Shown here piece after piece: positions 35,625 to 58,050 of a DNA stretch of 64,000 nucleotides. The notes under the pieces are model-generated. The model did not search any database. It was not told the DNA's origin and saw only the letters and a program-made list of their open reading frames with translations. Each line of letters opens with the position of its first letter. The first letter of the stretch is position 1. The stretch spans positions 95,824 to 159,823 of the IMG/VR virus record IMGVR_UViG_3300028800_000061. The stretch is one strand, 5' to 3'. Made by a program: the position numbers and the translations under genes. The DNA comes from a virus.

Positions 35625-35864
35625 ATGGACTCAGCGGCCGGGCCCGGGGTGCCGGTGGAGAAGCAAATCGAGGAACTCATGACCGACATCGACACGGCCG
35701 AGCGGGATGCCGCCCGGGACCTGGGCGCGGAAGCGGTCGAAGCGGGCGGGTGGACCGAACTGATCCGCAGCGTCATCGGCTGCGCCGGACCGCACATCGG
35801 TGACGAGGCCAAACGTGAGGTGCTCCGCATGACAGGGCTGGCGGAACACCCCAGCCAGCTCTGA
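35625..35864 (+). CDS. hypothetical protein
   Basis: AAGGAGG RBS. Confidence 0.65.
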   Translation: MDSAAGPGVPVEKQIEELMTDIDTAERDAARDLGAEAVEAGGWTELIRSVIGCAGPHIGDEAKREVLRMTGLAEHPSQL

Positions 35865-35900
35865 CCACTACCCGGGGAATGGCGAAAGGGAGAACAGGCA

Positions 35901-36185
35901 ATGCGAATGCGACCGATCAACTACCGGGGCGCGCTGAGGACTGCTGGCAGGTTCGTGATCTGCGTTTTGGCTGCCGGGTACGTGCTGACGTTGACGTTGG
36001 GCTTTTTCCGGCACGAACCGCCGCGGCCGCCGGCGAACCGGATCCTGCCATCGTGGACGTTCATTCAGCAGGTGCCGCCTGCGGTGCAGAACAGTTTCAC
36101 CCCGCCTCTTCCGGAAGGGTGCATCGCGATCGTTGGTGACACGACCATCATCATGTGCCGGAACGGTCAGACCGAAGAGTCCTAG
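35901..36185 (+). CDS. membrane-anchored hypothetical protein
   Basis: GGGAG RBS; one hydrophobic helix. Confidence 0.55.
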   Translation: MRMRPINYRGALRTAGRFVICVLAAGYVLTLTLGFFRHEPPRPPANRILPSWTFIQQVPPAVQNSFTPPLPEGCIAIVGDTTIIMCRNGQTEES

Positions 36186-36254
36186 ACCGGCCTGTGAACG
36201 CCTTCGCCGGGTCGATCGGGCGGGGGCGTTCACGTGTTCCGGACACGCAAACGA

Positions 36255-36308
36255 AACGTATTGACAGTGTCCCAACGCGTGGTAAGTTTGTCCGCATAGT
36301 AAAGACAA
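36255..36308 (+). promoter_or_regulatory. promoter plus operator copy 9
   Basis: AAACGTATTGACA-16-TAAGTT; TTGTCC-N9-AGACAA. Confidence 0.7.
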
Positions 36309-36327
36309 TCTACCGAAGGTGGCACGC

Positions 36328-36843
36328 ATGACACTCACCGATACCAGCAGCGCACCCGCGCCGGTTACCGACGACAAAATCGAAACACCGGATGACGCCT
36401 GCATCACGATCCCCGAGATCGGGCAGAAAATCCTCACCCGCGACATGGCCACAGTCACCGTCACCGAAATCCACGACGGCGGCCGGCGCCTCACAGTCAC
36501 CGGTGACACCGGTGAACCCGCGCAAATCGAGCGGATCCGCACCGGGTACTGGGTCCTCGCATCAGTCCTCGACCCGGCGAACATCCCCCCCGGAGACACC
36601 GGGGACTGGCCCGGCGAGGACGCAGACCCGGCGTACCTCCTGTACTCCTGGCTCCGCGAAGTTGACTACGGGCTGCGCGGGCCGATCGCAGACGCCCCCG
36701 ACACCATGCACTGCTACGCGTGCGGCGGCTACGACGGCATCACCTACAAGGAGCAGGCGGTCATCGAGTTCGGCGGCGTCGCCGAAGCGCACCGCGACCC
36801 CACCCAGGTGTACCTGCTCGAATGCGGCCACATGGCCATCTGA
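36328..36843 (+). CDS. hypothetical protein
   Basis: First gene of operon; CYAC...LLECGH. Confidence 0.6.
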   Translation: MTLTDTSSAPAPVTDDKIETPDDACITIPEIGQKILTRDMATVTVTEIHDGGRRLTVTGDTGEPAQIERIRTGYWVLASVLDPANIPPGDTGDWPGEDADPAYLLYSWLREVDYGLRGPIADAPDTMHCYACGGYDGITYKEQAVIEFGGVAEAHRDPTQVYLLECGHMAI

Positions 36844-45932: not shown

Positions 45933-46439
45933 ATGCTCGGGTGTGCGCGGGCGGATCCGGGCTGGTACTACCTGGCCAGGTGCGCGCTGCCTGAGGATGG
46001 CGGCCCGGGCGGGTGGTATCTGCGCGATGCGGAAGATGCCGGCCGCCTGGATTTCATGGGTGCGCTGAAACCGGTGGCGTTCCGTGCGGCGAACATGGAG
46101 ATATACCACCGTCAGGATGAGGTGGACGGCCGGGCGGCTTACTTCTCGATCGCGATGGAGATGGTGACTGGTTTCAGCGACCGGGATGCCATTGATGCCG
46201 CGCCGTGGTGGCATGCCGCTGATGTGATGCCGCGGCGGTTTCTCATGGGCCCGGTTCGTGATGCGCGGCGGTGGGCGGTGTCGCAGCAGATGCAGTGGCC
46301 GCCGGAGTGCGTGACTGGCGGGATTATGCGGGCCGAATGTTATTGGAAACGTGTTGACACTGTTCCGCCGCGGCTGCTAGTTTGTCCATGTAATAAGGAC
46401 CGGCTGTGCGGCCGGGCCATCGACACGAAGGAGACACCA
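45933..46439 (+). CDS. hypothetical protein (frame continues without stop into next gene)
   Basis: Plausible globular sequence; no stop before 47012. Confidence 0.4.
46347..46402 (+). promoter_or_regulatory. promoter plus degenerate operator copy 12
   Basis: AAACGTGTTGACA-18-TAGTTT; TTGTCC-N9-GGACCG. Confidence 0.65.
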
Positions 46440-47012
46440 GTGGAAACCACCACCGCGCCGGACCCCGCCGGCACCGAGACCACGCAGACCGGGAGCGAGG
46501 CGAGCGAGGCGAGCGAGGCGCAGCCGGCCCGCGTGTTCAACAACGGGCTCACCCCCGGGCACGACAAGACCGGCGCACCCTTGCAGGCCGGTTACGTGGG
46601 CCACTGCCAGGCGTGCGGGTTCCCGTTCTCCAAGCAGCAGAAGCGGCCGATCTGCCAATCCACGGTGGCCTGCAAGAAGCGGCTGGGCGACGGCACCTAC
46701 ACCGGCGGCGCTTCCTCCCCGGAGAGCACCCCGCCCGCGCCGGCGGGTGAGAGCCCGCAGCCGGAGAGCACCCCACCGGGCGGTGCCAGTGCCATCCCCG
46801 GGCCCGCCCCGGTGCCCGGTCCCAGGCCGGCGGGACGGAACCGGCGTGAGCCGGTGCCCACCCCGCGGCCCCCGGCCGGACGCAAGGGCAGCAGGCTCGC
46901 CCGGGCGGCGGAACTCGCCGAGCGGGACCACGCCGCTATCACCACCGGCGAGGACGCCGAGGCCGCGCAGTTGCGGCAGGAAGCCGAGCAGGCGCAGGCC
47001 GACGCCGCCTGA
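46440..47012 (+). CDS. C4 zinc-finger protein with disordered flanks (paralog of 25120-25734)
   Basis: AAGGAG RBS; GYVGHCQACGFPFSKQQKRPICQSTVACKKR. Confidence 0.7.
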   Translation: METTTAPDPAGTETTQTGSEASEASEAQPARVFNNGLTPGHDKTGAPLQAGYVGHCQACGFPFSKQQKRPICQSTVACKKRLGDGTYTGGASSPESTPPAPAGESPQPESTPPGGASAIPGPAPVPGPRPAGRNRREPVPTPRPPAGRKGSRLARAAELAERDHAAITTGEDAEAAQLRQEAEQAQADAA

Positions 47013-47133
47013 CCGGCCGGGAGGCCCAGACAGGGTGCACATGCCGCCCCGCCGTGGCATGTGCACCCATCCGGGTAACAGCCCGGCCGGGACATGTGCG
47101 ACACCCGGATCCTCATCAAGGAGGCACCAGATC

Positions 47134-47877
47134 ATGACCGTCACCACTGACAACCCGCTGCTCGGCAGGGTCCGCAAGCTGCTGGCCAAAGCGGAAGCCG
47201 TGGGCGTCACGCCACCGGAAGCGCAAGCGCTGACCGCGAAAGCCGCTGAGCTGATGGCCAAGTACGGAATCGACCGGGCGCTGCTCGCCGCCGACCGGCC
47301 GGACACCGACCGGCCCGCCGACCGGATCATCGACGTCGACAACCCGTGGGCGCGGATCCAAGCTCACCTGCTGTGCGGTCTCGCCGCGGCGATGCGCTGC
47401 CAGTGCGTTGTCCTGCCCACCAGCACGCCGGGCTCCCGGATTCACATGTTCGGCTTCGCTTCCGACATCGAGCGGGCTGACATCCTGTACACCTCAGTGC
47501 TGGTGCAGATGTGGATGGCCCTGGCCGTGGCGGAAGTGCCCGAGTGGTCGCGCAGCCCGCGGGCGTGGCGGCGCAGCTTCCTGCTCGGATTCGCCACTGC
47601 CGTGGTTTCCCGTGTGCGAGCTGCCGAGAAGGAAGCCGCTGACGAGGCCACTGCGCCCGCGGCCGCCACCAGCTCGAAGGCGACGATCGTGCTGGCCGAC
47701 CGGCGGCAGGTCATCCGCCGCAACATTGAGCAGGCCTATCCGCTGACGCGCAAGACCCGCCTGACCTACAGCGGCAACGGCTACGGCGCCGGCTACACGG
47801 AGGGGCAGAAGGCGGACATCGGCGGCGGCGCGGCGCCGGTCCGCGGCGGCCGGGCCGGGCAGGGGGCGATCGGCTGA
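47134..47877 (+). CDS. DUF2786-family protein
   Basis: LGRVRKLLAKAE...PPEAQALTAKAAELMAKYGI; AWRRSFLLGF; AAGGAGG RBS. Confidence 0.85.
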   Translation: MTVTTDNPLLGRVRKLLAKAEAVGVTPPEAQALTAKAAELMAKYGIDRALLAADRPDTDRPADRIIDVDNPWARIQAHLLCGLAAAMRCQCVVLPTSTPGSRIHMFGFASDIERADILYTSVLVQMWMALAVAEVPEWSRSPRAWRRSFLLGFATAVVSRVRAAEKEAADEATAPAAATSSKATIVLADRRQVIRRNIEQAYPLTRKTRLTYSGNGYGAGYTEGQKADIGGGAAPVRGGRAGQGAIG

Positions 47878-49638: not shown

Positions 49639-49836
49639 GTGGCCGACACTGAGATCCGGCCCGGCCAGGTTGTGTGGTGCTGGGGTGATGACACCTGCGA
49701 TCACACTTACCGAGGCCTGGTGATCGAGGCCGAACCGCCGCGGTGGTACCGGGTGCGATTCACGTTCGGGACGGTGTGGGTGCCGGGCGGGTGGCTACTG
49801 GTGGATGCCAGCCAGCTCGTACGCCTGCCGGACTGA
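49639..49836 (+). CDS. small SH3/Tudor-like hypothetical protein
   Basis: IRPGQVVW...YRGLVI...YRVRF. Confidence 0.4.
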   Translation: MADTEIRPGQVVWCWGDDTCDHTYRGLVIEAEPPRWYRVRFTFGTVWVPGGWLLVDASQLVRLPD

Positions 49837-50175
49837 TACCCCCAGCGAGCGGACCACCTCAGCTTGATCACGCAATGTCCGCAGGTGGTCTTGCGCGGAC
49901 TCGCGGATCACTGTCGCCCGGTCGTAGGCGAACTCCAGGTCGGAGACTTGCTCGTCAACCCACGCGTCCCGCTCGGCGGTAGTCGTGCCGCCGCGGGCTA
50001 CCTTTGGGGCCTGGCCGGCGAGGAGTGCGCGGCGGCGGGCCCGCTTGTACTCGTGCTTCGCGTTGACCTCAAGGTCGCGGGCTTGGGCGAGTGCGACGCG
50101 GGCCCGGCCGAGCTCGTTGACCAGGGTGCGCAGCTTGGACTCAATCTCGACGGGGGTGAGCGCGTCACCGTTCAT
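49795..50175 (-). CDS. coiled-coil hypothetical protein
   Basis: LTPVEIESKLR...TTAERDAWV; last gene of the modification operon. Confidence 0.65.
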   Translation of the reverse strand: MNGDALTPVEIESKLRTLVNELGRARVALAQARDLEVNAKHEYKRARRRALLAGQAPKVARGGTTTAERDAWVDEQVSDLEFAYDRATVIRESAQDHLRTLRDQAEVVRSLGVSVRQAYELAGIHQ

Positions 50176-50178
50176 GAT

Positions 50179-50688
50179 TTACGTCGTCCAGCCCTCGGAG
50201 AACCCGTCGCCGGCGCCGCGTTTCGTCATCTGGCCCCGGTCGGCCAGGCGGGATACTTCTTCCTGGTCCATTTCCAGGCGGGCGCCGATCTCATGCGGGT
50301 CCATGCCAAGATCGAGCAGGTCCGCGATGATGTCGGCCATCGCGAGGACGTAGTGGGTGCCGCGGGCCCGGTTGTGGCGGATGGTGGCCATGCGCGCGAC
50401 ATCGGGCGGGCACTCGGCGAGGGTGACGATCGGGACCAGGCCGCCGGTGAGTGCAGCGATCTGCTTGTCCTCGGCGACAAGCCAACGGTGGTAGCCGTCA
50501 ACAATTTCTAGGCGCTCACCGCCGTCGTGCTCACGGACAACGATCGGCTGTGTCCACCCGTTCTCGAGGATGGAGATTTTCAGCAGCCGTTTCTCCGGCG
50601 GGGCTTGCCGGTTGGGATTCCAGTCGTTGCTGCTCAGGGCATCGCGGGGCACCCATCGCACAGCGGAGATGGGTTGCGTTTCGATCAA
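50179..50688 (-). CDS. IbrB-like ParB-N domain protein
   Basis: QPISAVRWV, NDWNPN.QAPPE..LL..SI...GWTQPIVV, IVDGYHRW, MATIRHNRARGTH; TTGA overlap with upstream IbrA-like gene. Confidence 0.88.
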   Translation of the reverse strand: MIETQPISAVRWVPRDALSSNDWNPNRQAPPEKRLLKISILENGWTQPIVVREHDGGERLEIVDGYHRWLVAEDKQIAALTGGLVPIVTLAECPPDVARMATIRHNRARGTHYVLAMADIIADLLDLGMDPHEIGARLEMDQEEVSRLADRGQMTKRGAGDGFSEGWTT

Positions 50689-52001
50689 GGGAGTTCCTTC
50701 GCATACGGCGGGATCAGCGCGTACGGGTCCGGTGGTGGCGGTGTGGGGGCGGCCAACTCGACGTAGGTGCCGTCGGCGATGATCTGGGTGAGTTCGGCGG
50801 CGTACTTGTGCCAGATGTGCGGGGCTGGGATGCCTTTGCCGATGACTGGGACGCGGGCGGCTGCGGTCGCGGAGCGGCGGTCTTTGAAATCGCCGCGCAT
50901 CGCGATCGACAGCAGGTAATCCCACGACACCCCCGATTCGGGGTGGGGGGTGCGGATCACCATCGGGTCACTGGTTTTGCGGTAGTGACGGCCTAGTGCG
51001 TCGCGGACCCTTTTGATGACGATCGGCCGGTCAGCCGGGCCGAATTTCTGGATGTACCTGGTCAGGAAATCGGGCCACAGCATGCCCTCTGGTTTCTGGG
51101 GGCGTTTGTGGTAGCCGTACAGTTCGGTGAGCGCGTACCTGACTGCGGATCCTGCACCGGGTACCCGTTCGGCCATCTTGCCCCAGACATCGGGGAAGCA
51201 GGAGGCGAAGGTGTGCAGTTTCTGCAGTGGTTCCTCACCGAACGCGGGTGAGCACCGCTGGCTGCTGTGCGGGATGCCGGCCATTTCGAACCGGTCGTAG
51301 GCCCGGTTGTAATCCCAGCCCTTGATGGCAGGTGCGGTCCACACGTCTTCTGTGGTCCAGTCGTACACCGGGTACGCTTTCCAGATGTTTCCGGCGGACT
51401 CACCCTCGGTGTATTTGATCATGTAGTTTTCGGATGCGTGCCGCAGCAGCGCCCATGTGCGGGTCCGCGATTCCTGGGCGCGGATGCCCATAAGGGTTGC
51501 GCAGTTGCCCTGGCCGGCAGTGAACATGAGCCCATCCGATTGCGGGATCGTCAACCTGGCTGCTGCCGGTTCGGCGGGAAACCCGGCCAGGACCGTGATC
51601 GCTTCCGGTGGCAGGGGCCGGCACCATTTGTCGCGGGACTCCGGCGCCCACGGCCACCAGTACGGGAACTCCCGCGAGCACGCGTTGCGGTGCTTCACCG
51701 GCAGGCAGTACCACTCCAAGGCGATGTCGTCGCGCTGGCCCATCCGGCGGACGTACTCTTCGGTTTCGAGCGGGATCGCTTCCTCGTCGAAGAAGCAGGC
51801 GCGCAACGGCAGGTGCCGTTCAAAACGGGGATCGGAGTGCGCGACCTCTAGGGCGATGTTGAGTACCGCGGTGGAATCCTTGCCGCCGGAGAACGCGACC
51901 CTGATGTTGTCGAACCGTTCCATGATGGTGGCGGTCCGCTCCAGGGCGAGGGTGTAAACGTCCTGTTCTGCTGGCCTTCGGGACAGCAGGTGGTAGGACA
52001 A
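50685..52001 (-). CDS. IbrA-like PAPS-reductase-family (PP-loop) protein, copy 2
   Basis: VAFSGGKDS, FFDEEA, WYCLP, GIRAQES..R, YPVYDWTTEDVW, YNRAYD, QRCSPAFG. Confidence 0.88.
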   Translation of the reverse strand: MSYHLLSRRPAEQDVYTLALERTATIMERFDNIRVAFSGGKDSTAVLNIALEVAHSDPRFERHLPLRACFFDEEAIPLETEEYVRRMGQRDDIALEWYCLPVKHRNACSREFPYWWPWAPESRDKWCRPLPPEAITVLAGFPAEPAAARLTIPQSDGLMFTAGQGNCATLMGIRAQESRTRTWALLRHASENYMIKYTEGESAGNIWKAYPVYDWTTEDVWTAPAIKGWDYNRAYDRFEMAGIPHSSQRCSPAFGEEPLQKLHTFASCFPDVWGKMAERVPGAGSAVRYALTELYGYHKRPQKPEGMLWPDFLTRYIQKFGPADRPIVIKRVRDALGRHYRKTSDPMVIRTPHPESGVSWDYLLSIAMRGDFKDRRSATAAARVPVIGKGIPAPHIWHKYAAELTQIIADGTYVELAAPTPPPPDPYALIPPYAKELP

Positions 52002-52075
52002 CGTGGCCCCCTGCCGGGTTACAGTCGGAAGCTAAGACGCTGTTCCTGTCGCGGCTTGCAGGGCCGGGGATGGTG

Positions 52076-53413
52076 TCAGGGCCGGGCTGGCGGGCTAACG
52101 CCGGCCCGGCCTGCTGCCCAGGCGTACGGCGGTATGAGCGAGTACGGGTCTGCGGGCGGCGGAACTGGGGCGGCCAGCTCGGCGTAGGTGCCGTCGATCA
52201 TGATTTGATGCAGTTCGTCTGCGTACTTGTGCCAGTACCCGGGCAGCGGACGGCGCTGGGCGTCGTTGAGGATCCGGCCGCCGGCGTGCTTACGTGATTT
52301 GAAATCGCCGCGCATCGCGAGCATGAGCAGCCAATCCCACGACAGGCAGGTGTCCGGGTGTGGTGCGTGGACGACGATCGGGTCTGCGGTCATCTGGTAG
52401 TGGCGGGCGAGCAGCAGCTTGATCTTCCCCGCGATAGTGGCAGCGTCACCGGGGCGGAACTGGCGCAGGTAGTGGCCGATGAAATCGGGCCACGCCAGGC
52501 CGGGTGGTTTGGCCGGGCGGCCGTGGTAGGAGTAGAGCTCGGTGCGCGCGTAGCGGACTGCGGCGCCGACACCTGGTACCCGCTCGGTCATCTTGGACCA
52601 CACATCAGGGAAGCACGCCGCGTAGGTGTGGATTTTCTGCAACGGTTCCTCACCGAACGCTGGGGAGCACCGTTGGATGGAGTGGGAGACGCCAGCCATC
52701 TCCATCCGGTCATACGCCCGGTTGTAATCCCAGCCTTTCACCGCTGGTGCGGTCCACACATCCTCAGTAGTCCAGTCGTACACCGGGTACGCTTTCCACA
52801 GGTTGCCCTGGCTTGTGCCATCATCAGATTTGACCAGGTAGTTGTCAATTTTGCGGGCGGTCACCGCCCGGCGGCGGGTCAACGATTCCTGCGCCCGGAT
52901 ACCCATGAATATCGCGGTGTTGCCGCGCTCGACGGGAGCGAGCAGCCCGTTCATCTCCGCTGTGGTCAGCCGGCTCTCGACAGGCCAGATCGGGAACCCT
53001 GGCAGCTCGGTGATGGCTTCCGGTGGGAGGGGGCGGCACCATTTGTGCTTGTCCTCCGGGGCCCACGGGTACCACCAGGGGTGCGTGCGGGAGCACGCGT
53101 TGCGGTGCTTCACCGGCAGGCAGTACCACTCGCAGTTGATGTCGTCGCGGGCGGCGATCCGCCGTACGTACTCCTCGGTTTCGACCGGGATCGCTTCCTC
53201 GTCCTGGAAGACGGTACGCAACGGCAGATGCCGGGCGTACTTCGGATCGGAGTGGGCGACATCGAGGATGACGTTCAAGGTGGCGGTGGAATCTTTGCCG
53301 CCGGAGAACAGGACAAACACCCGGTCGAAGCGGGCCAGCACAGAGGCGGTACGTTCCATCGCCAGGGTGTAGACGTCCTGCCCGGCTGGCCGTTTCGGCA
53401 GCATGGTGGCCAA
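52076..53413 (-). CDS. IbrA-like PAPS-reductase-family (PP-loop) protein, copy 1
   Basis: Same motif set as 50685-52001; start TTG 53413 or ATG 53404. Confidence 0.88.
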   Translation of the reverse strand: MATMLPKRPAGQDVYTLAMERTASVLARFDRVFVLFSGGKDSTATLNVILDVAHSDPKYARHLPLRTVFQDEEAIPVETEEYVRRIAARDDINCEWYCLPVKHRNACSRTHPWWYPWAPEDKHKWCRPLPPEAITELPGFPIWPVESRLTTAEMNGLLAPVERGNTAIFMGIRAQESLTRRRAVTARKIDNYLVKSDDGTSQGNLWKAYPVYDWTTEDVWTAPAVKGWDYNRAYDRMEMAGVSHSIQRCSPAFGEEPLQKIHTYAACFPDVWSKMTERVPGVGAAVRYARTELYSYHGRPAKPPGLAWPDFIGHYLRQFRPGDAATIAGKIKLLLARHYQMTADPIVVHAPHPDTCLSWDWLLMLAMRGDFKSRKHAGGRILNDAQRRPLPGYWHKYADELHQIMIDGTYAELAAPVPPPADPYSLIPPYAWAAGRAGVSPPARP

Positions 53414-53430
53414 CCGCCGGACCCCTTCTC

Positions 53431-54030
53431 TCAGATGGTGACGATCTGCCCGGGCGGGAGTTCGGCAGCAGCGGGCCCGGCTGGCCAGGAGCACAAGTAG
53501 GTGCCGTTCCCGTGCTCCCAGGTCCACAGCGGGTGGTAGTGGCGGGTGGCGTACAGGTGCCCGTCCTGGTCGGCGATGACGATCGCCCACGCTTCCTGAA
53601 CGGCTCCCGCGGTGAGGTCAGCTAGCGCACCCAAAGGTGATTTGACCTGCCGGGCGGCGGCGTACGCGACCGCGAAAGCGATCGTGTCGGTGGCTTGCGA
53701 GACGGCGAAGGTGTCCGCGTTGTAGATGCAGCCGTTGTGCGCGACACCGTGGCCGCCGCGCAGGACCGGCTGCAGCTGGGTCAGGTCCTGCCAGTCACCG
53801 AACGAGGCCAGGCGGGTGTGCCCGAGGATCTGGTGCGCGCCGAGGGCACGGATATCTTTCGCGCTGACCGCGATCGGGCCCGCGCGGTGCACCGTGCTGT
53901 ACCCGCCGTCCGGGTCGCGGGTCATCCACCCGTGGCCGTGTGGCCCGCGGCGGCCAGCCGCGATAGCGGCCCGCTCGAGCATGCCAGGATCAGGTGGGCC
54001 CGTGCCGTTGTAGGCGAAAATTCCGCACAC
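53431..54030 (-). CDS. class II (Ntn) glutamine amidotransferase, stand-alone
   Basis: N-terminal (M)CGIF, RGPHGHG, GHTRLAS, AHNGCIYN, TDT. Confidence 0.85.
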   Translation of the reverse strand: MCGIFAYNGTGPPDPGMLERAAIAAGRRGPHGHGWMTRDPDGGYSTVHRAGPIAVSAKDIRALGAHQILGHTRLASFGDWQDLTQLQPVLRGGHGVAHNGCIYNADTFAVSQATDTIAFAVAYAAARQVKSPLGALADLTAGAVQEAWAIVIADQDGHLYATRHYHPLWTWEHGNGTYLCSWPAGPAAAELPPGQIVTI

Positions 54031-54038
54031 GCCCGGCC

Positions 54039-54839
54039 TCAGTCGCGGCCGGTGCGCTGCATCCACTCCGCTGCCTGCGGGAGGACTGTGGCGGCGTGGC
54101 GGATGACATCCGGGTCGATCGACCAGCACTCGGAGAATCCGTGATCGGTGGAGTGGGTCCACTGGCGTGCTGGCCACGGGCCTGTGCCGACCTGGTAGCC
54201 GCGTGGCCAGTCGTAGCACGGTGGCAACGGCAGATTCTCGCGGGCGATCAGCGCCAGGGCATGCTCATGGGTCCAGTCGGCGAGCGGGGACCAGTAGGTG
54301 ACACCGCGGGAGTTGGTGTACCTGTCGGCTTCACCGGGGCCGACGTAGTTGCCGTCTTTGCGGCGGCGGCCGAGCAGGAGCATGTCCAGTTTCTGTGCGC
54401 GGAAGTAGTCGCGCTGGGCCCGGTGCTGCACCACGGAGAACCACCGTGAGCCGTGGCGGCCCTGGGGAAACAGCATGACCGGGCGGGCGGCGAGCCACGC
54501 CAGGTCGATGGGGACAGCGCCGATCTCGCAACCGGGTGGCATGTGGTCGGTCAGCCAGCGGAGCATCGCCGGCCACTCCAGGCCGGTGGTCATGCCGAGG
54601 ATGCATTCGGGGACGCCGGCCAGCTCTGCGACGTGCCGGAGAATCTGGGAGTCTTTCCCTCCGGACCAGCCGTATGCGAGCCGGCGGCCGCCGGCCAGTT
54701 CGCTGGTGATGCCGGTGACCGCTTTGTCGACGAGCGCGTCGAGTTCGCTGTCAGTGACGGTTTCGCGGGCCCACTTGGCGGCTTCCTGCCATGCGGCAGC
54801 GTCGGAGATGTGCTGCTTGCGGCCGAGTGCGCCGGTCAA
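54039..54839 (-). CDS. PAPS-reductase-family (PP-loop) protein, short type
   Basis: YGWSGGKDS, LGRRRKDGN, SPLADWT. Confidence 0.85.
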   Translation of the reverse strand: MTGALGRKQHISDAAAWQEAAKWARETVTDSELDALVDKAVTGITSELAGGRRLAYGWSGGKDSQILRHVAELAGVPECILGMTTGLEWPAMLRWLTDHMPPGCEIGAVPIDLAWLAARPVMLFPQGRHGSRWFSVVQHRAQRDYFRAQKLDMLLLGRRRKDGNYVGPGEADRYTNSRGVTYWSPLADWTHEHALALIARENLPLPPCYDWPRGYQVGTGPWPARQWTHSTDHGFSECWSIDPDVIRHAATVLPQAAEWMQRTGRD

Positions 54840-55267
54840 TCTGCCTGGTCCCCTGCGTAGATCGGGCGGTCGAGCAGTGTGCCGTCCCAGTCGGTGAACG
54901 CCATCCGCTCAGGTGAGTCGACTGGTTTGTGGGGTGCGCCGATGGCGATAAGCACGTGGCCGCGTGGCCCGGCGCCGACAGCGTGCGGGACCTGGCCGTC
55001 CACCATGTACAGGTCGCCGGGGATCACATCGTAGGTGATGCCCGCGACGCTGATGGTGCCGGTACCCGCGAGGCAGTACAGCAGGTGATCGCCGGGGTGC
55101 GTGTGGACGGGGAAGCTCCGGCCTGCTGGGACGCGGAGAATGTCAGCGCCGAGGTGCCCGTTGGTGTGCAGGCCAAGGCCGGTTGCGGGTGCCCCGTGGA
55201 CGGGGACACCTTCGGTGATGACTTTGAGCGACGCGTCGGCCAGGTTGATGATTTTCAGGTCGGTCAC
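54836..55267 (-). CDS. cupin-domain protein
   Basis: FPVHTHPGDHLLYCLAGTG...PGDLYMVDGQVPHAV. Confidence 0.85.
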   Translation of the reverse strand: MTDLKIINLADASLKVITEGVPVHGAPATGLGLHTNGHLGADILRVPAGRSFPVHTHPGDHLLYCLAGTGTISVAGITYDVIPGDLYMVDGQVPHAVGAGPRGHVLIAIGAPHKPVDSPERMAFTDWDGTLLDRPIYAGDQAD

Positions 55268-56010
55268 TGGGCCTCCCCGGGCTGCAGGTAGGCGCGGGCG
55301 ATCGCTGTTACTGCGTCAGCGGATGTTGGCAGGCCAAGGTTCTGCTTCGCGGTGGTGACTGCCCGCTGGATCAGGTCACGCTGGTATGTGGAGACCATCC
55401 AGGAGACTTGCACCCATCTGTGTGTGTCCTCGCCGGCTGGCGGGGCGGCCTGGCCATTGCCGCTGGGCGCCGGTGGCGGTGTCGTGTCCAGTGGCGGTGG
55501 CCCTGGTTGCGGTGGCCCGGGCGGGAGCGGGTCACCGGGCGGGCCCGGCCATTTTGAGGGGTCGTTGAAGTCGTTGAGGAAACCTGTGGCCTGGTCGGCG
55601 AGTGCGCCGCTGGTCCTCATGATTTCGGTGACCGCGCGCTCGTCGAACCCGGTGCCGGACAGGTCCTCGTCGAGGGCGGTGAGCAGGTCGGCTAGCAGCC
55701 GGTCGTCGTAGGCGCCCATGTCGGAGAGCCGGTTGTCGGCCAGGTTGATCCGGATGGCTTCATCATCTGTGCAGGTGATGATTTCGCAGCGTGCTGTCTC
55801 CTGGCCTTCGGCTTCGAGGGCGTCACGGGTGTGGTTGCCGGCGAGAATGATCAGGCCGTCCGGTCCATCCCGCACGACAAGGGACCGGTACTGGCCGTTC
55901 CGCCGGATGCTGCCCCTGATCTCGTCCGTGTTGCCGCGGCGCGGGTTGCCGGGGAATCTGGTGAGCTCGGCTAGCGGGATGTCGCGGACTGCGATCCAGG
56001 TGGCAGGCAT
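55264..56010 (-). CDS. ParB-N domain protein (phage type)
   Basis: PGNPRRGN...SIRRNGQYRSLVV...ILAGNHT...LADNRLSD; Pro-rich linker; AAGGAG RBS. Confidence 0.85.
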   Translation of the reverse strand: MPATWIAVRDIPLAELTRFPGNPRRGNTDEIRGSIRRNGQYRSLVVRDGPDGLIILAGNHTRDALEAEGQETARCEIITCTDDEAIRINLADNRLSDMGAYDDRLLADLLTALDEDLSGTGFDERAVTEIMRTSGALADQATGFLNDFNDPSKWPGPPGDPLPPGPPQPGPPPLDTTPPPAPSGNGQAAPPAGEDTHRWVQVSWMVSTYQRDLIQRAVTTAKQNLGLPTSADAVTAIARAYLQPGEAQ

Positions 56011-57318: not shown

Positions 57319-58050
57319 TTACCGGAACAGCCACCCGAGGAACGCGTTTCCCACTTCAATGTCGCGGACTTCCATCGAGTTCGCTTCTTCACGTGCTTGC
57401 TTCACCGCGATTTGCAGACGGTCCACCCGGTCTAGTAGTTCCGCGATACGGGCTGGTGGCAGCGCACCTGAGTAATTGATGCGCGCCCATGACCCGACAG
57501 TGACATCTTCGAAGTACACGTCAACTTGCGCCGGGTGCTTGTCGGTGGCTGCGGCCTTGACGTGGTTGCGGGGGACTTTCTTCGTCCGGTGCGTGATAGC
57601 CGGGGCGGTGCGCCACCATCCGGTCGTCTGATCCATCTCCCACTGCTGGGACTGGTCGTGCGCGGGCAGTTTCGTGATGACCGCTCGCAAATCGGAGAGC
57701 TGCTTCTCAAGGAACAGCAGGAAAGTCGGCGGGGCCTGGCGGACGAGAAGCTCACCGTCGATGATCACATCGGCGCGGGCTTCGCAGTTCGCGTAGTCCT
57801 TGGTCGCTTGCACATCGAACAGCCGGGTCAGCGACCGGATGATGTCCTTGATGACATCCTCGATTTTGAGCTGCACCCTGGTGGACTCGGGGGGCAGCTC
57901 CTCGCCTTCCTCGTCGCGGGGAAGGTATGTGCGGGTCAGCCCTGTGACCATGCCGTCTTTCTGGATCTGCTTGTACAGGCCGGTCAGGTGCGCGTAGGTC
58001 TTGTTTTTGACGCCCGTGTCGACGGCGACGATCTGGCATAGCTTGGTCAC
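57319..58050 (-). CDS. conserved coiled-coil protein of unknown function
   Basis: KL.QIVAV..GVK, LTRTY.PRDEEGE.LPPE...VQ, ATKD.AN..A.AD, ATDKHPAQV, AVK.ARE.AN; recalled as a family found in actinobacteria and phages (needs HMM confirmation). Confidence 0.8.
   Translation of the reverse strand: MTKLCQIVAVDTGVKNKTYAHLTGLYKQIQKDGMVTGLTRTYLPRDEEGEELPPESTRVQLKIEDVIKDIIRSLTRLFDVQATKDYANCEARADVIIDGELLVRQAPPTFLLFLEKQLSDLRAVITKLPAHDQSQQWEMDQTTGWWRTAPAITHRTKKVPRNHVKAAATDKHPAQVDVYFEDVTVGSWARINYSGALPPARIAELLDRVDRLQIAVKQAREEANSMEVRDIEVGNAFLGWLFR

Follow-up and report, generated by a model that had tools for sequence, protein, structure and literature searches.

The final 64 kb of a 159,823-bp virus record (IMG/VR IMGVR_UViG_3300028800_000061, positions 95,824 to 159,823; CheckV completeness 98%, about 65% G+C), which we refer to as the window, carries a seven-gene cassette on its minus strand (window positions 50179-56010). 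In order, the genes encode a ParB-like protein (ParBL), a cupin, a short PAPS-reductase-like PP-loop ATP pyrophosphatase (sPAPS), a stand-alone glutamine amidotransferase domain (the glutaminase), two IbrA paralogues and an IbrB-type protein. We propose, with a probability of roughly 0.45, that this cassette includes a glutamine-dependent, ATP-driven amidoligase working within an IbrA/IbrB-type machine that ParB-fold proteins assist. The glutaminase is a physical part of this PP-loop/ParB machine, because it is modelled in contact with sPAPS and because one related locus carries a natural fusion of the glutaminase with IbrB.

The glutaminase gene (53431-54030, minus strand) encodes a class-II, or N-terminal nucleophile (Ntn), amidotransferase domain of 199 residues (GATase_6, 2.7e-6; domain calls throughout are Pfam and PHROGs matches). 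Its start was corrected to a GTG at 54030, which makes the protein shorter than the 262-residue open reading frame and places it 8 nt past the sPAPS stop. The protein begins M-C-G-I-F, with the cysteine straight after the initiator methionine, and the residues invariant among 23 sequences are Cys2, R28-G-P-H31, H71, R73, N99-G100 and D115. From the alignment and from what is known of PurF and GlmS, we take these positions to be the nucleophile, the oxyanion hole and the glutamine-binding sites of class-II amidotransferases, with R73, N99-G100 and D115 as the arginine, the Asn-Gly pair and the aspartate that characterize a glutamine site. In profile comparisons, the glutaminase domains of GlmS and PurF are matched at E-values between 7e-9 and 3e-8; the match to EgtC is weak (0.46), as is that to the YafJ-type structure 1te5.

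Relatives of the glutaminase numbered 27 in a word-indexed protein collection, where many of them pair with an sPAPS relative from a contig of equal length, which suggests that the two lie on one contig. When 1.84 billion representatives were searched exhaustively with the profile, 67 clusters were found at E <= 1e-30, with nearly all of the top 150 clusters being stand-alone proteins of about 200 residues. Every relative examined adjoins sPAPS, bar one partial, weak match, and two distant relatives sampled at random (from those with profile E of about 1e-24 to 1e-28) both adjoin sPAPS as well. The word-indexed search gave no longer, fused glutaminases, and the exhaustive search gave one real fusion, P0203, a 362-residue protein (L104:452-1540) in which a glutaminase (residues 1-184) is joined to an IbrB-type ParB-N domain (residues 198-358) that matches the IbrB of the window at E 8e-45. 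Its gene lies between sPAPS, which precedes it, and a gene for a 228-residue cupin, which follows it, on a 3.4-kb ENA contig of 67.5% G+C. A second candidate of this kind, P0183, was rejected as an over-extended open reading frame call with a low-complexity N-terminus. There are also three loci in which the glutaminase gene is inverted yet still found where it normally stands, between sPAPS and IbrA (L019:9971-10654, L020:3929-4891 and L105:209-871); these operons are otherwise co-directional.

The partner enzyme, sPAPS (54039-54839, minus strand; 266 residues), matches PAPS_reduct at 1.8e-6 and phrog_424 at 2.5e-25. Across 24 sequences the WSGGKDS PP-loop is invariant, together with a G-R-R-R-x-D-G-N motif and seven tryptophans, and no cysteine is invariant. 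In the AlphaFold2 model (predicted local distance difference test score, pLDDT, of 93.8), WSGGKDS follows the strand at residues 54-57, which is the arrangement of PP-loop (N-type) ATP pyrophosphatases. The best fold matches of sPAPS are PAPS/APS reductase, FAD synthase, TtuA and the ATP pyrophosphatase subunit of GuaA, at identities of 9-18%, and the sPAPS and IbrA models give further low-identity matches to CysD, TtuA/NcsA, LarE and the PAPS domain of FAD synthase. At the level of the models, these matches confirm the PAPS-reductase-family fold of sPAPS and IbrA, and they yield no clue to the substrate. A fourth PAPS_reduct protein of 350 residues (PF01507 1e-9, phrog_424 2.7e-27) is encoded outside the window, at genome positions 35786-36838 (L007:961-2013), immediately behind a DUF6349 gene; no ParB partner is encoded nearby, and its position bears no relation to the cluster.

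To model the sPAPS-glutaminase complex, we used alignments for both proteins. The interaction score (ipSAE) was 0.88 in three runs, compared with 0.07 for the best control; 58 of 80 solved complexes and 2 of 110 mismatched pairs attain the mark applied to this score. At least 96% of the contacts are common to the three runs, and the pLDDT of the partner is 94. On the glutaminase side, the modelled interface consists of residues 1-2, 27-31, 74-77 and 99-101, which form the catalytic face; on the sPAPS side, it consists of residues 85-108, which begin in the loop after strand 2. As the PP-loop comes after strand 1, the order of the secondary structure elements would put this loop next to it. No solved structure resembles either partner closely in sequence, and for this reason it seems unlikely that the score merely reproduces a known complex. 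The initial annotation, which had been made from the sequence alone, had likened the PP-loop protein and the amidotransferase to known synthetase-glutaminase pairs, and this pairing is supported both by their adjacency in the loci and by a predicted interface that contains the catalytic face.

We count at least 15 distinct loci, in phages or prophages, that have the order sPAPS, glutaminase, one to three copies of IbrA and IbrB, and the fuller recurring order is ParB-like protein, cupin (or phrog_28683), sPAPS, glutaminase, one to three copies of IbrA and IbrB. Since the same set and order recur in many diverged loci, among which the glutaminase is only 26-57% identical, the cluster is more than a chance arrangement. 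One of the glutaminase-bearing loci, L003, belongs to a prophage of Thermomonospora (GCA_014138835.1), whose chromosome has 7.4 Mb, and the module there spans L003:8625-16590; prophage copies exist in cultured strains of Thermomonospora, Streptomyces, Micromonospora and Actinomadura. The host of the phage studied here is probably an actinomycete, because the named relatives of the cluster proteins are from Micromonospora, Actinoallomurus, Streptomyces, Thermomonospora and Actinomadura.

The module also exists in a form that lacks the glutaminase. Among the best 80 sPAPS loci, the common form comprises sPAPS, a ParB-like protein of about 200 residues, IbrA and IbrB, and it is preceded by a gene whose end overlaps sPAPS and whose 475-495-residue product is a divergent sodium:solute symporter (SSF, about 1e-22). 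The nearest subfamilies of this symporter are PanF and PutP, and among solved structures, choline and urea transporters come closest to it. For 85 distinct sPAPS loci, we find the glutaminase in 17, the symporter in 63, neither in five (at least two of which, L049 and L055, are on short contigs) and both in none. When mapped on the tree of sPAPS, the loci with a symporter fall into a single nested clade and those with a glutaminase make up deeper, paraphyletic groups, so the alternation appears to reflect about one evolutionary switch. The idea that the glutaminase is a late accessory was dropped, because the loci that carry it are the deeper and paraphyletic ones.

Our neighbourhood survey thus agrees with the initial annotation in that the genes are conserved together as a module, but the list from ParB to IbrB given there represents one version of a variable module rather than seven fixed steps of a pathway. 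The pathway had also been called putatively new, which calls for some qualification. We found no published description of the glutaminase-bearing variant, but sPAPS has 409 relatives in the protein collection and is found on at least 277 viral contigs in a profile scan of IMG/VR, and the IbrA/IbrB pair is common in phages. When compared with 50,697 phage records, the DNA of the cluster gave three short matches at 73% only. In tblastn searches, the glutaminase had no match and sPAPS matched one unannotated gut contig, so that there is no cultured phage that could serve as a model. A profile scan of genome contigs with the glutaminase confirmed no locus, although NCBI actinomycete records do carry the module, and a literature search found no functional study of it. 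The cassette is best described as a variant of a kind that is known but uncharacterised, for which the contact model, the fusion, the alternation, the census of cysteines and the IbrA duplication are new in this analysis.

In PP-loop enzymes, an oxygen of the substrate first attacks the alpha-phosphate of ATP, and in those that are linked to a glutaminase (AsnB, GuaA, NadE and Gat-QueC), ammonia then displaces AMP. Because glutaminase-linked PP-loop enzymes work in this manner, we propose the same two steps of adenylation and amination for sPAPS and the glutaminase. The module would comprise two PAPS-reductase-family PP-loop ATP pyrophosphatases, sPAPS and IbrA, each with a protein of the ParB/sulfiredoxin (ParB/Srx) fold, ParBL and IbrB, respectively. 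With ATP, sPAPS would adenylate a carbonyl, carboxylate or phosphate oxygen of the substrate; the glutaminase, its Cys1 face docked on sPAPS residues 85-108, would split glutamine, and the ammonia would presumably displace AMP to leave an amine, amide or amidate. IbrA, with its single invariant cysteine, would carry out a second ATP-dependent step, and the cupin an accessory, metal-dependent one. The ParB-fold partners would most likely bring the enzymes to, or activate them on, double-stranded phage DNA.

The combination of a PP-loop adenylating unit and a glutaminase is shared with AsnB, GMP synthetase, glutamine-dependent NAD synthetase and Gat-QueC, and in AsnB and Gat-QueC the glutaminase is of the Ntn class II, as it is here. 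In contrast to these enzymes, the PP-loop unit of the cassette belongs to PF01507 and not to Asn_synthase, QueC, NAD_synthase or GMP_synt, and, unlike in AsnB-type enzymes, the synthetase and the glutaminase are separate proteins. We know of no member of PF01507 with a glutaminase partner. In Pfam, the PP-loop proteins of the cluster give PAPS_reduct only and not the Asn_synthase domain that characterizes AsnB and CmoY, and a profile search of the PDB with sPAPS found PAPS reductase, FAD synthase, TtuA and GuaA but not AsnB. CmoY is an asparagine-synthetase-like phage DNA ligase that acts on a carboxyl group on phage DNA; ParB neighbours are often found at CmoX/CmoY, and one such cluster has a glutamine-hydrolysing amidase domain (PMC12783734). 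The genome studied here differs from this system in that it has no homologue of the CmoA/CmoX-type C5 methylase.

We infer that DNA is the target of the module, because there are two ParB-fold partners per module, because related cassettes lie beside packaging genes (in some loci, such as L002 and L004, terminase or portal genes are found a few kilobases downstream), and because ParB-fold proteins have been described together with DNA enzymes. The phage thymine dioxygenase 5mYOX176 requires ParB176 on double-stranded DNA only (PMC13229309), and DpdB with DpdA and DndB with DndC are ParB-fold partners of DNA-modifying enzymes (PMC12839542, PMC10853773). As in the cassette, the ParB-fold protein in 5mYOX176/ParB176 and DpdA/DpdB is a small phage protein without an obvious DNA-binding domain. 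The enzymes themselves are of other types than sPAPS and IbrA: 5mYOX176 is a 2-oxoglutarate dioxygenase and DpdA is a transglycosylase resembling tRNA-guanine transglycosylase (TGT). We found neither Tet_JBP nor TGT here, the Tet_JBP negative being a weak one since its control search gave no match anywhere. A more specific version of the DNA target, which we regard as rather improbable, is that the PAPS-reductase-family PP-loop enzyme and the glutaminase aminate phage DNA after replication, either by forming a phosphoramidate from an adenylated backbone phosphate, as analogy with the phosphate activation of the DndC type suggests, or by aminating or amidating a base. IbrA would then set the sites and the ParB-fold proteins would open the double-stranded DNA.

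Several points weigh against an amidoligase that acts on DNA. The score of the complex is a model confidence and not a measurement, and the part of sPAPS that is modelled against the glutaminase is just as conserved where the module has no glutaminase; this part must therefore have another role too. The alternation between glutaminase and symporter, seemingly the outcome of about one switch, counts as one observation and not as many. Stand-alone Ntn domains can be EgtC-like amidohydrolases rather than ammonia donors, and the glutaminase does have weak matches of the EgtC/YafJ type. No result of our analysis bears on the substrate, and the aldehyde dehydrogenase that accompanies some relatives, the cupin and the solute importer of the sister clade are as compatible with chemistry on a metabolite as with chemistry on a polymer, if not more so.

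This last point leads to a serious rival, even though we consider it unlikely, namely a pathway that makes or alters a metabolite or else a free (deoxy)nucleotide and could yield either a precursor that is incorporated later or an anti-defence compound. The ParB/Srx folds would then be enzymes that use nucleoside triphosphates, like sulfiredoxin and SerK, and not DNA clamps, and ParB folds do bind ATP, GTP or CTP in varied contexts (PMC12704722). The overlap of the symporter gene with sPAPS in 63 of the 85 distinct loci is consistent with such a pathway, as are the small-molecule substrates of the enzymes whose folds are nearest to sPAPS and IbrA (FAD synthase, CysD and APS/PAPS reductase) and a weak likeness of the cupin to ectoine synthase. 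In four distinct loci, IbrB is followed by the gene of an aldehyde dehydrogenase of ordinary NAD(P) type that resembles aminobutyraldehyde, betaine-aldehyde and phenylacetaldehyde dehydrogenases. However, neither this dehydrogenase nor the symporter is found anywhere in the 159.8-kb genome of this phage, the repeated duplication of IbrA is better suited to a specificity-determining enzyme, and the two ParB-fold proteins per module and the packaging-gene neighbours match published DNA-modification cassettes (PMC13229309, PMC12783734). If the amidoligase is doubted at the glutaminase itself, the Ntn protein could be an amidohydrolase of the EgtC/YafJ type, which would remove a gamma-glutamyl group, or one like it, from an intermediate made by sPAPS. 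Its stand-alone form and EgtC-like size of about 200 residues agree with this, together with the weak EgtC and 1te5 matches, and R73 and D115, which hold the alpha-carboxylate and alpha-amino groups of glutamine, would also hold a gamma-glutamyl adduct. We give this alternative a small chance, as the best profile matches are to the amidotransferase domains of GlmS and PurF and the catalytic face is modelled straight against sPAPS, as in amidotransferases that form a channel.

Sulfur chemistry of the Dnd, Ssp or type-4 bacteriophage exclusion (BREX) kind, in which IbrA, sPAPS or both would thiolate the DNA backbone or a base with the help of a host cysteine desulfurase, is suggested by the family itself, since DndC and BrxP are PAPS-reductase-family enzymes; DndBC and the BrxP of type-4 BREX likewise combine such a PP-loop enzyme with a ParB-superfamily protein, there on DNA. 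IbrA has weak local matches to DndC (25-34 bits in NCBIfam, 2e-8 in PADLOC), and its invariant cysteine with a nearby invariant histidine recalls sacrificial or persulfide-carrying PP-loop enzymes. Yet these matches span about 58 residues and fall far below the cut-off of 290 bits for DndC (TIGR03183), the PADLOC defence models gave short DndC-like local matches only, and the iron-sulfur cysteines and the cysteine dyad of DndC are absent: IbrA is without the three-cysteine iron-sulfur site and sPAPS has no invariant cysteine. No gene of the DndC, DndD or DndE type turned up in the cluster, although DndD and DndE were not separately searched. Sulfur transfer would also leave the glutaminase without a role, and the module is phage-borne and not a host defence as in Dnd and BREX. 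Over the whole 159.8-kb genome, we found no Aminotran_5 (cysteine desulfurase), no C5-methylase, and neither the QueC (PF06508) nor the TGT (PF01702) of the Gat-QueC/deazaguanine route, for which the controls were positive. The sole match of the DNA methyltransferase type is an N6_N4_Mtase (2e-19; genome positions 46182-46838, L107), which lies outside the window and far from the cluster. The absence of cysteine desulfurase, transglycosylase and methylase reported in the initial annotation therefore extends to the genome, apart from this one distant N6/N4 methylase. With the partner genes and the cysteine motifs missing and the DndC scores tenfold under the cut-off, phosphorothioate routes of the Dnd/Ssp type and deazaguanine routes are unlikely, in line with the distinct route postulated there, and we consider sulfur chemistry in general quite improbable. 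The chance that the module modifies RNA, with the PP-loop enzymes acting on phage or host tRNA in the manner of TilS, TtcA, TtuA or QueC, seems slimmer still. The fold search with sPAPS did return TtuA, NcsA and TilS, but sPAPS lacks the iron-sulfur cysteines of TtuA and TtcA, the known ParB-fold partners go with DNA enzymes and not tRNA enzymes, and most relatives are phages or prophages of 30-100 kb. For the loci inspected, the tables of called genes contain no linked tRNA genes, no tRNA scan having been made.

The second PP-loop enzyme of the proposed amidoligase machine, IbrA, is present in two paralogues that are 64% identical to each other. IbrA1 (52076-53404, minus strand, with the start corrected to 53404; 442 residues) matches PAPS_reduct (PF01507) at 2.2e-10, DUF3440 (PF11922) at 8.7e-7 and phrog_2302 at 1e-75, and has a helical C-terminal part; IbrA2 (50685-52001, minus strand; 438 residues) matches the same families at 4.5e-8, 5e-7 and about 1e-76. 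In both proteins PF01507 is followed by PF11922 and all four matches pass the curated cut-offs. The adjacent IbrB (50179-50688, minus strand) has 169 residues when read from its corrected start, a TTG at 50688 that overlaps the IbrA2 stop as TTGA, and matches ParB_N (PF02195) at 1.7e-6, its 28.4 bits exceeding the cut-off of 26.3, as well as phrog_2159 at 5e-56. Across 68 sequences, IbrA conserves SGGKDS, an E173-S174..R177 motif and a single cysteine, Cys95, in W-x-C-L-P..H100; with only one invariant cysteine, it lacks a three-cysteine iron-sulfur site. The AlphaFold2 model of IbrA has a pLDDT of 86, and its C-terminal helical part had no match in the fold search.

A PAPS_reduct and DUF3440 protein followed by a small ParB_N protein is likewise the arrangement of the IbrA/IbrB pair (ibrAB of E. 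coli ECOR-9 and YbdN/YbdM of K-12). This pair is associated with phages and prophages, 223 phage records having it, and the phage versions, phrog_2302 and phrog_2159, are strongly matched here, although the IbrA of the window is only about 30% identical to that of cultured phages. The cassette differs in that IbrA is doubled and in that a second PP-loop/ParB pair (sPAPS and ParBL), the glutaminase and the cupin are added. The name supplies no mechanism, as the biochemistry of IbrA/IbrB is itself uncharacterised. The tandem IbrA copies of L001 (two), L003 (three) and L020 (two) each cluster within their own lineage in the tree, and the copies of the window fall together with their nearest relatives in a small unresolved clade, which is consistent with this pattern. 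The duplication has therefore happened repeatedly, and it may mark a specificity-setting component under diversifying pressure. IbrB is 51-72% identical to its counterparts in the high-GC related loci and 34-46% in L019 and L020. Several relatives have an insert of about 0.5 kb between the last IbrA and IbrB (L003:15618-16178, L009:2764-3366 and L011:4763-5332). That of L003 is an open reading frame with a faint LAGLIDADG_3 match, and that of L009 is preceded by a short duplicated fragment of the IbrB N-terminus; these inserts may represent homing-endonuclease insertions.

At the other end of the cassette, ParBL (55264-56010, minus strand; 248 residues) has an N-terminal ParB/Srx-fold domain, a Pro-rich linker and a small C-terminal domain. 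It gave no match in the Pfam scan and is recognized by phrog_723 alone (2.2e-40), which its counterparts in the related loci also match. The cupin (54836-55267, minus strand; 143 residues) is a putative metal-binding Cupin_2 barrel (PF07883, 6e-12) with the two cupin motifs, and its candidate ligands His55, His57, His95 and His104 are invariant in six homologues. Over 106 residues it is about 50% identical to PDB 9ug7_A, a 'Cupin type-2 domain-containing protein' (E 5e-26), on which a literature search found no paper. The cupin is present in five glutaminase-bearing loci, and others have phrog_28683 instead, which occupies the cupin slot in half of the high-GC glutaminase-bearing loci (L002:8472-9209, L015:8461-9210 and relatives). 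This protein has 245-250 residues, no Pfam match and a mean column identity of 78% in seven copies. Its motifs (H-L-H-T-G and P-R-G-V-S-H-Q-F-N) are suggestive of a cupin, but the hhalign probability is 13% and we do not support this assignment.

Codon-position G+C and the structure of the open reading frames support eight consecutive minus-strand genes at 49795-56010, which is the span that had been annotated as the operon. All seven proteins of the cassette are present and their named domains are borne out, including the two closely similar IbrA proteins, so that the operon stands from 50179 upward. The eighth gene (49795-50175, minus strand; 126 residues, phrog_1389 3.8e-19) is co-directional and begins 3 nt after IbrB, but it has a counterpart in none of the related loci and is probably not part of the module. 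Overlaps of 4 nt at three junctions (ParBL/cupin, cupin/sPAPS and IbrA2/IbrB) suggest translational coupling of the cassette genes, and a search for internal promoters or terminators in the cluster gave nothing convincing beyond the shuffled expectation. Upstream of the cluster lies a gene for a 243-residue DUF7873 protein (57319-58050, minus strand; full-length match, E 2e-97). Gene calls are uncertain between 45.9 and 49.6 kb of the window, where an open reading frame at 46747-47877 on the plus strand has DUF2786 (3e-16) and DUF7168 (1.7e-8) matches and long open reading frames overlap on both strands. The GP88 found in relatives is absent from this genome or window.

Few unexplained enzyme pairs are as common in phage genomes as those of the IbrA/IbrB type, whose genes are routinely mislabelled as sulfur metabolism ("PAPS reductase", cysH). 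The glutaminase-bearing variant offers the first chemical handle on them. Given that one of the PP-loop enzymes is predicted to dock with a glutaminase, we expect nitrogen from glutamine to be transferred in one step at the expense of ATP, which could be traced directly with 15N-amide glutamine. Because a solute importer takes the place of the glutaminase in the sister clade, our data suggest that the attached group differs between phages. If the pairing of sPAPS with the glutaminase is true, it would to our knowledge be the first of its kind in the PAPS-reductase family. If phage DNA is indeed aminated after replication, this would be a DNA modification chemistry that has not yet been described, and it would give IbrA/IbrB a first function. 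More generally, if DNA is the target, the hypermodification of phage DNA and anti-restriction would gain an enzyme family that is new to them, and perhaps a new chemistry as well.

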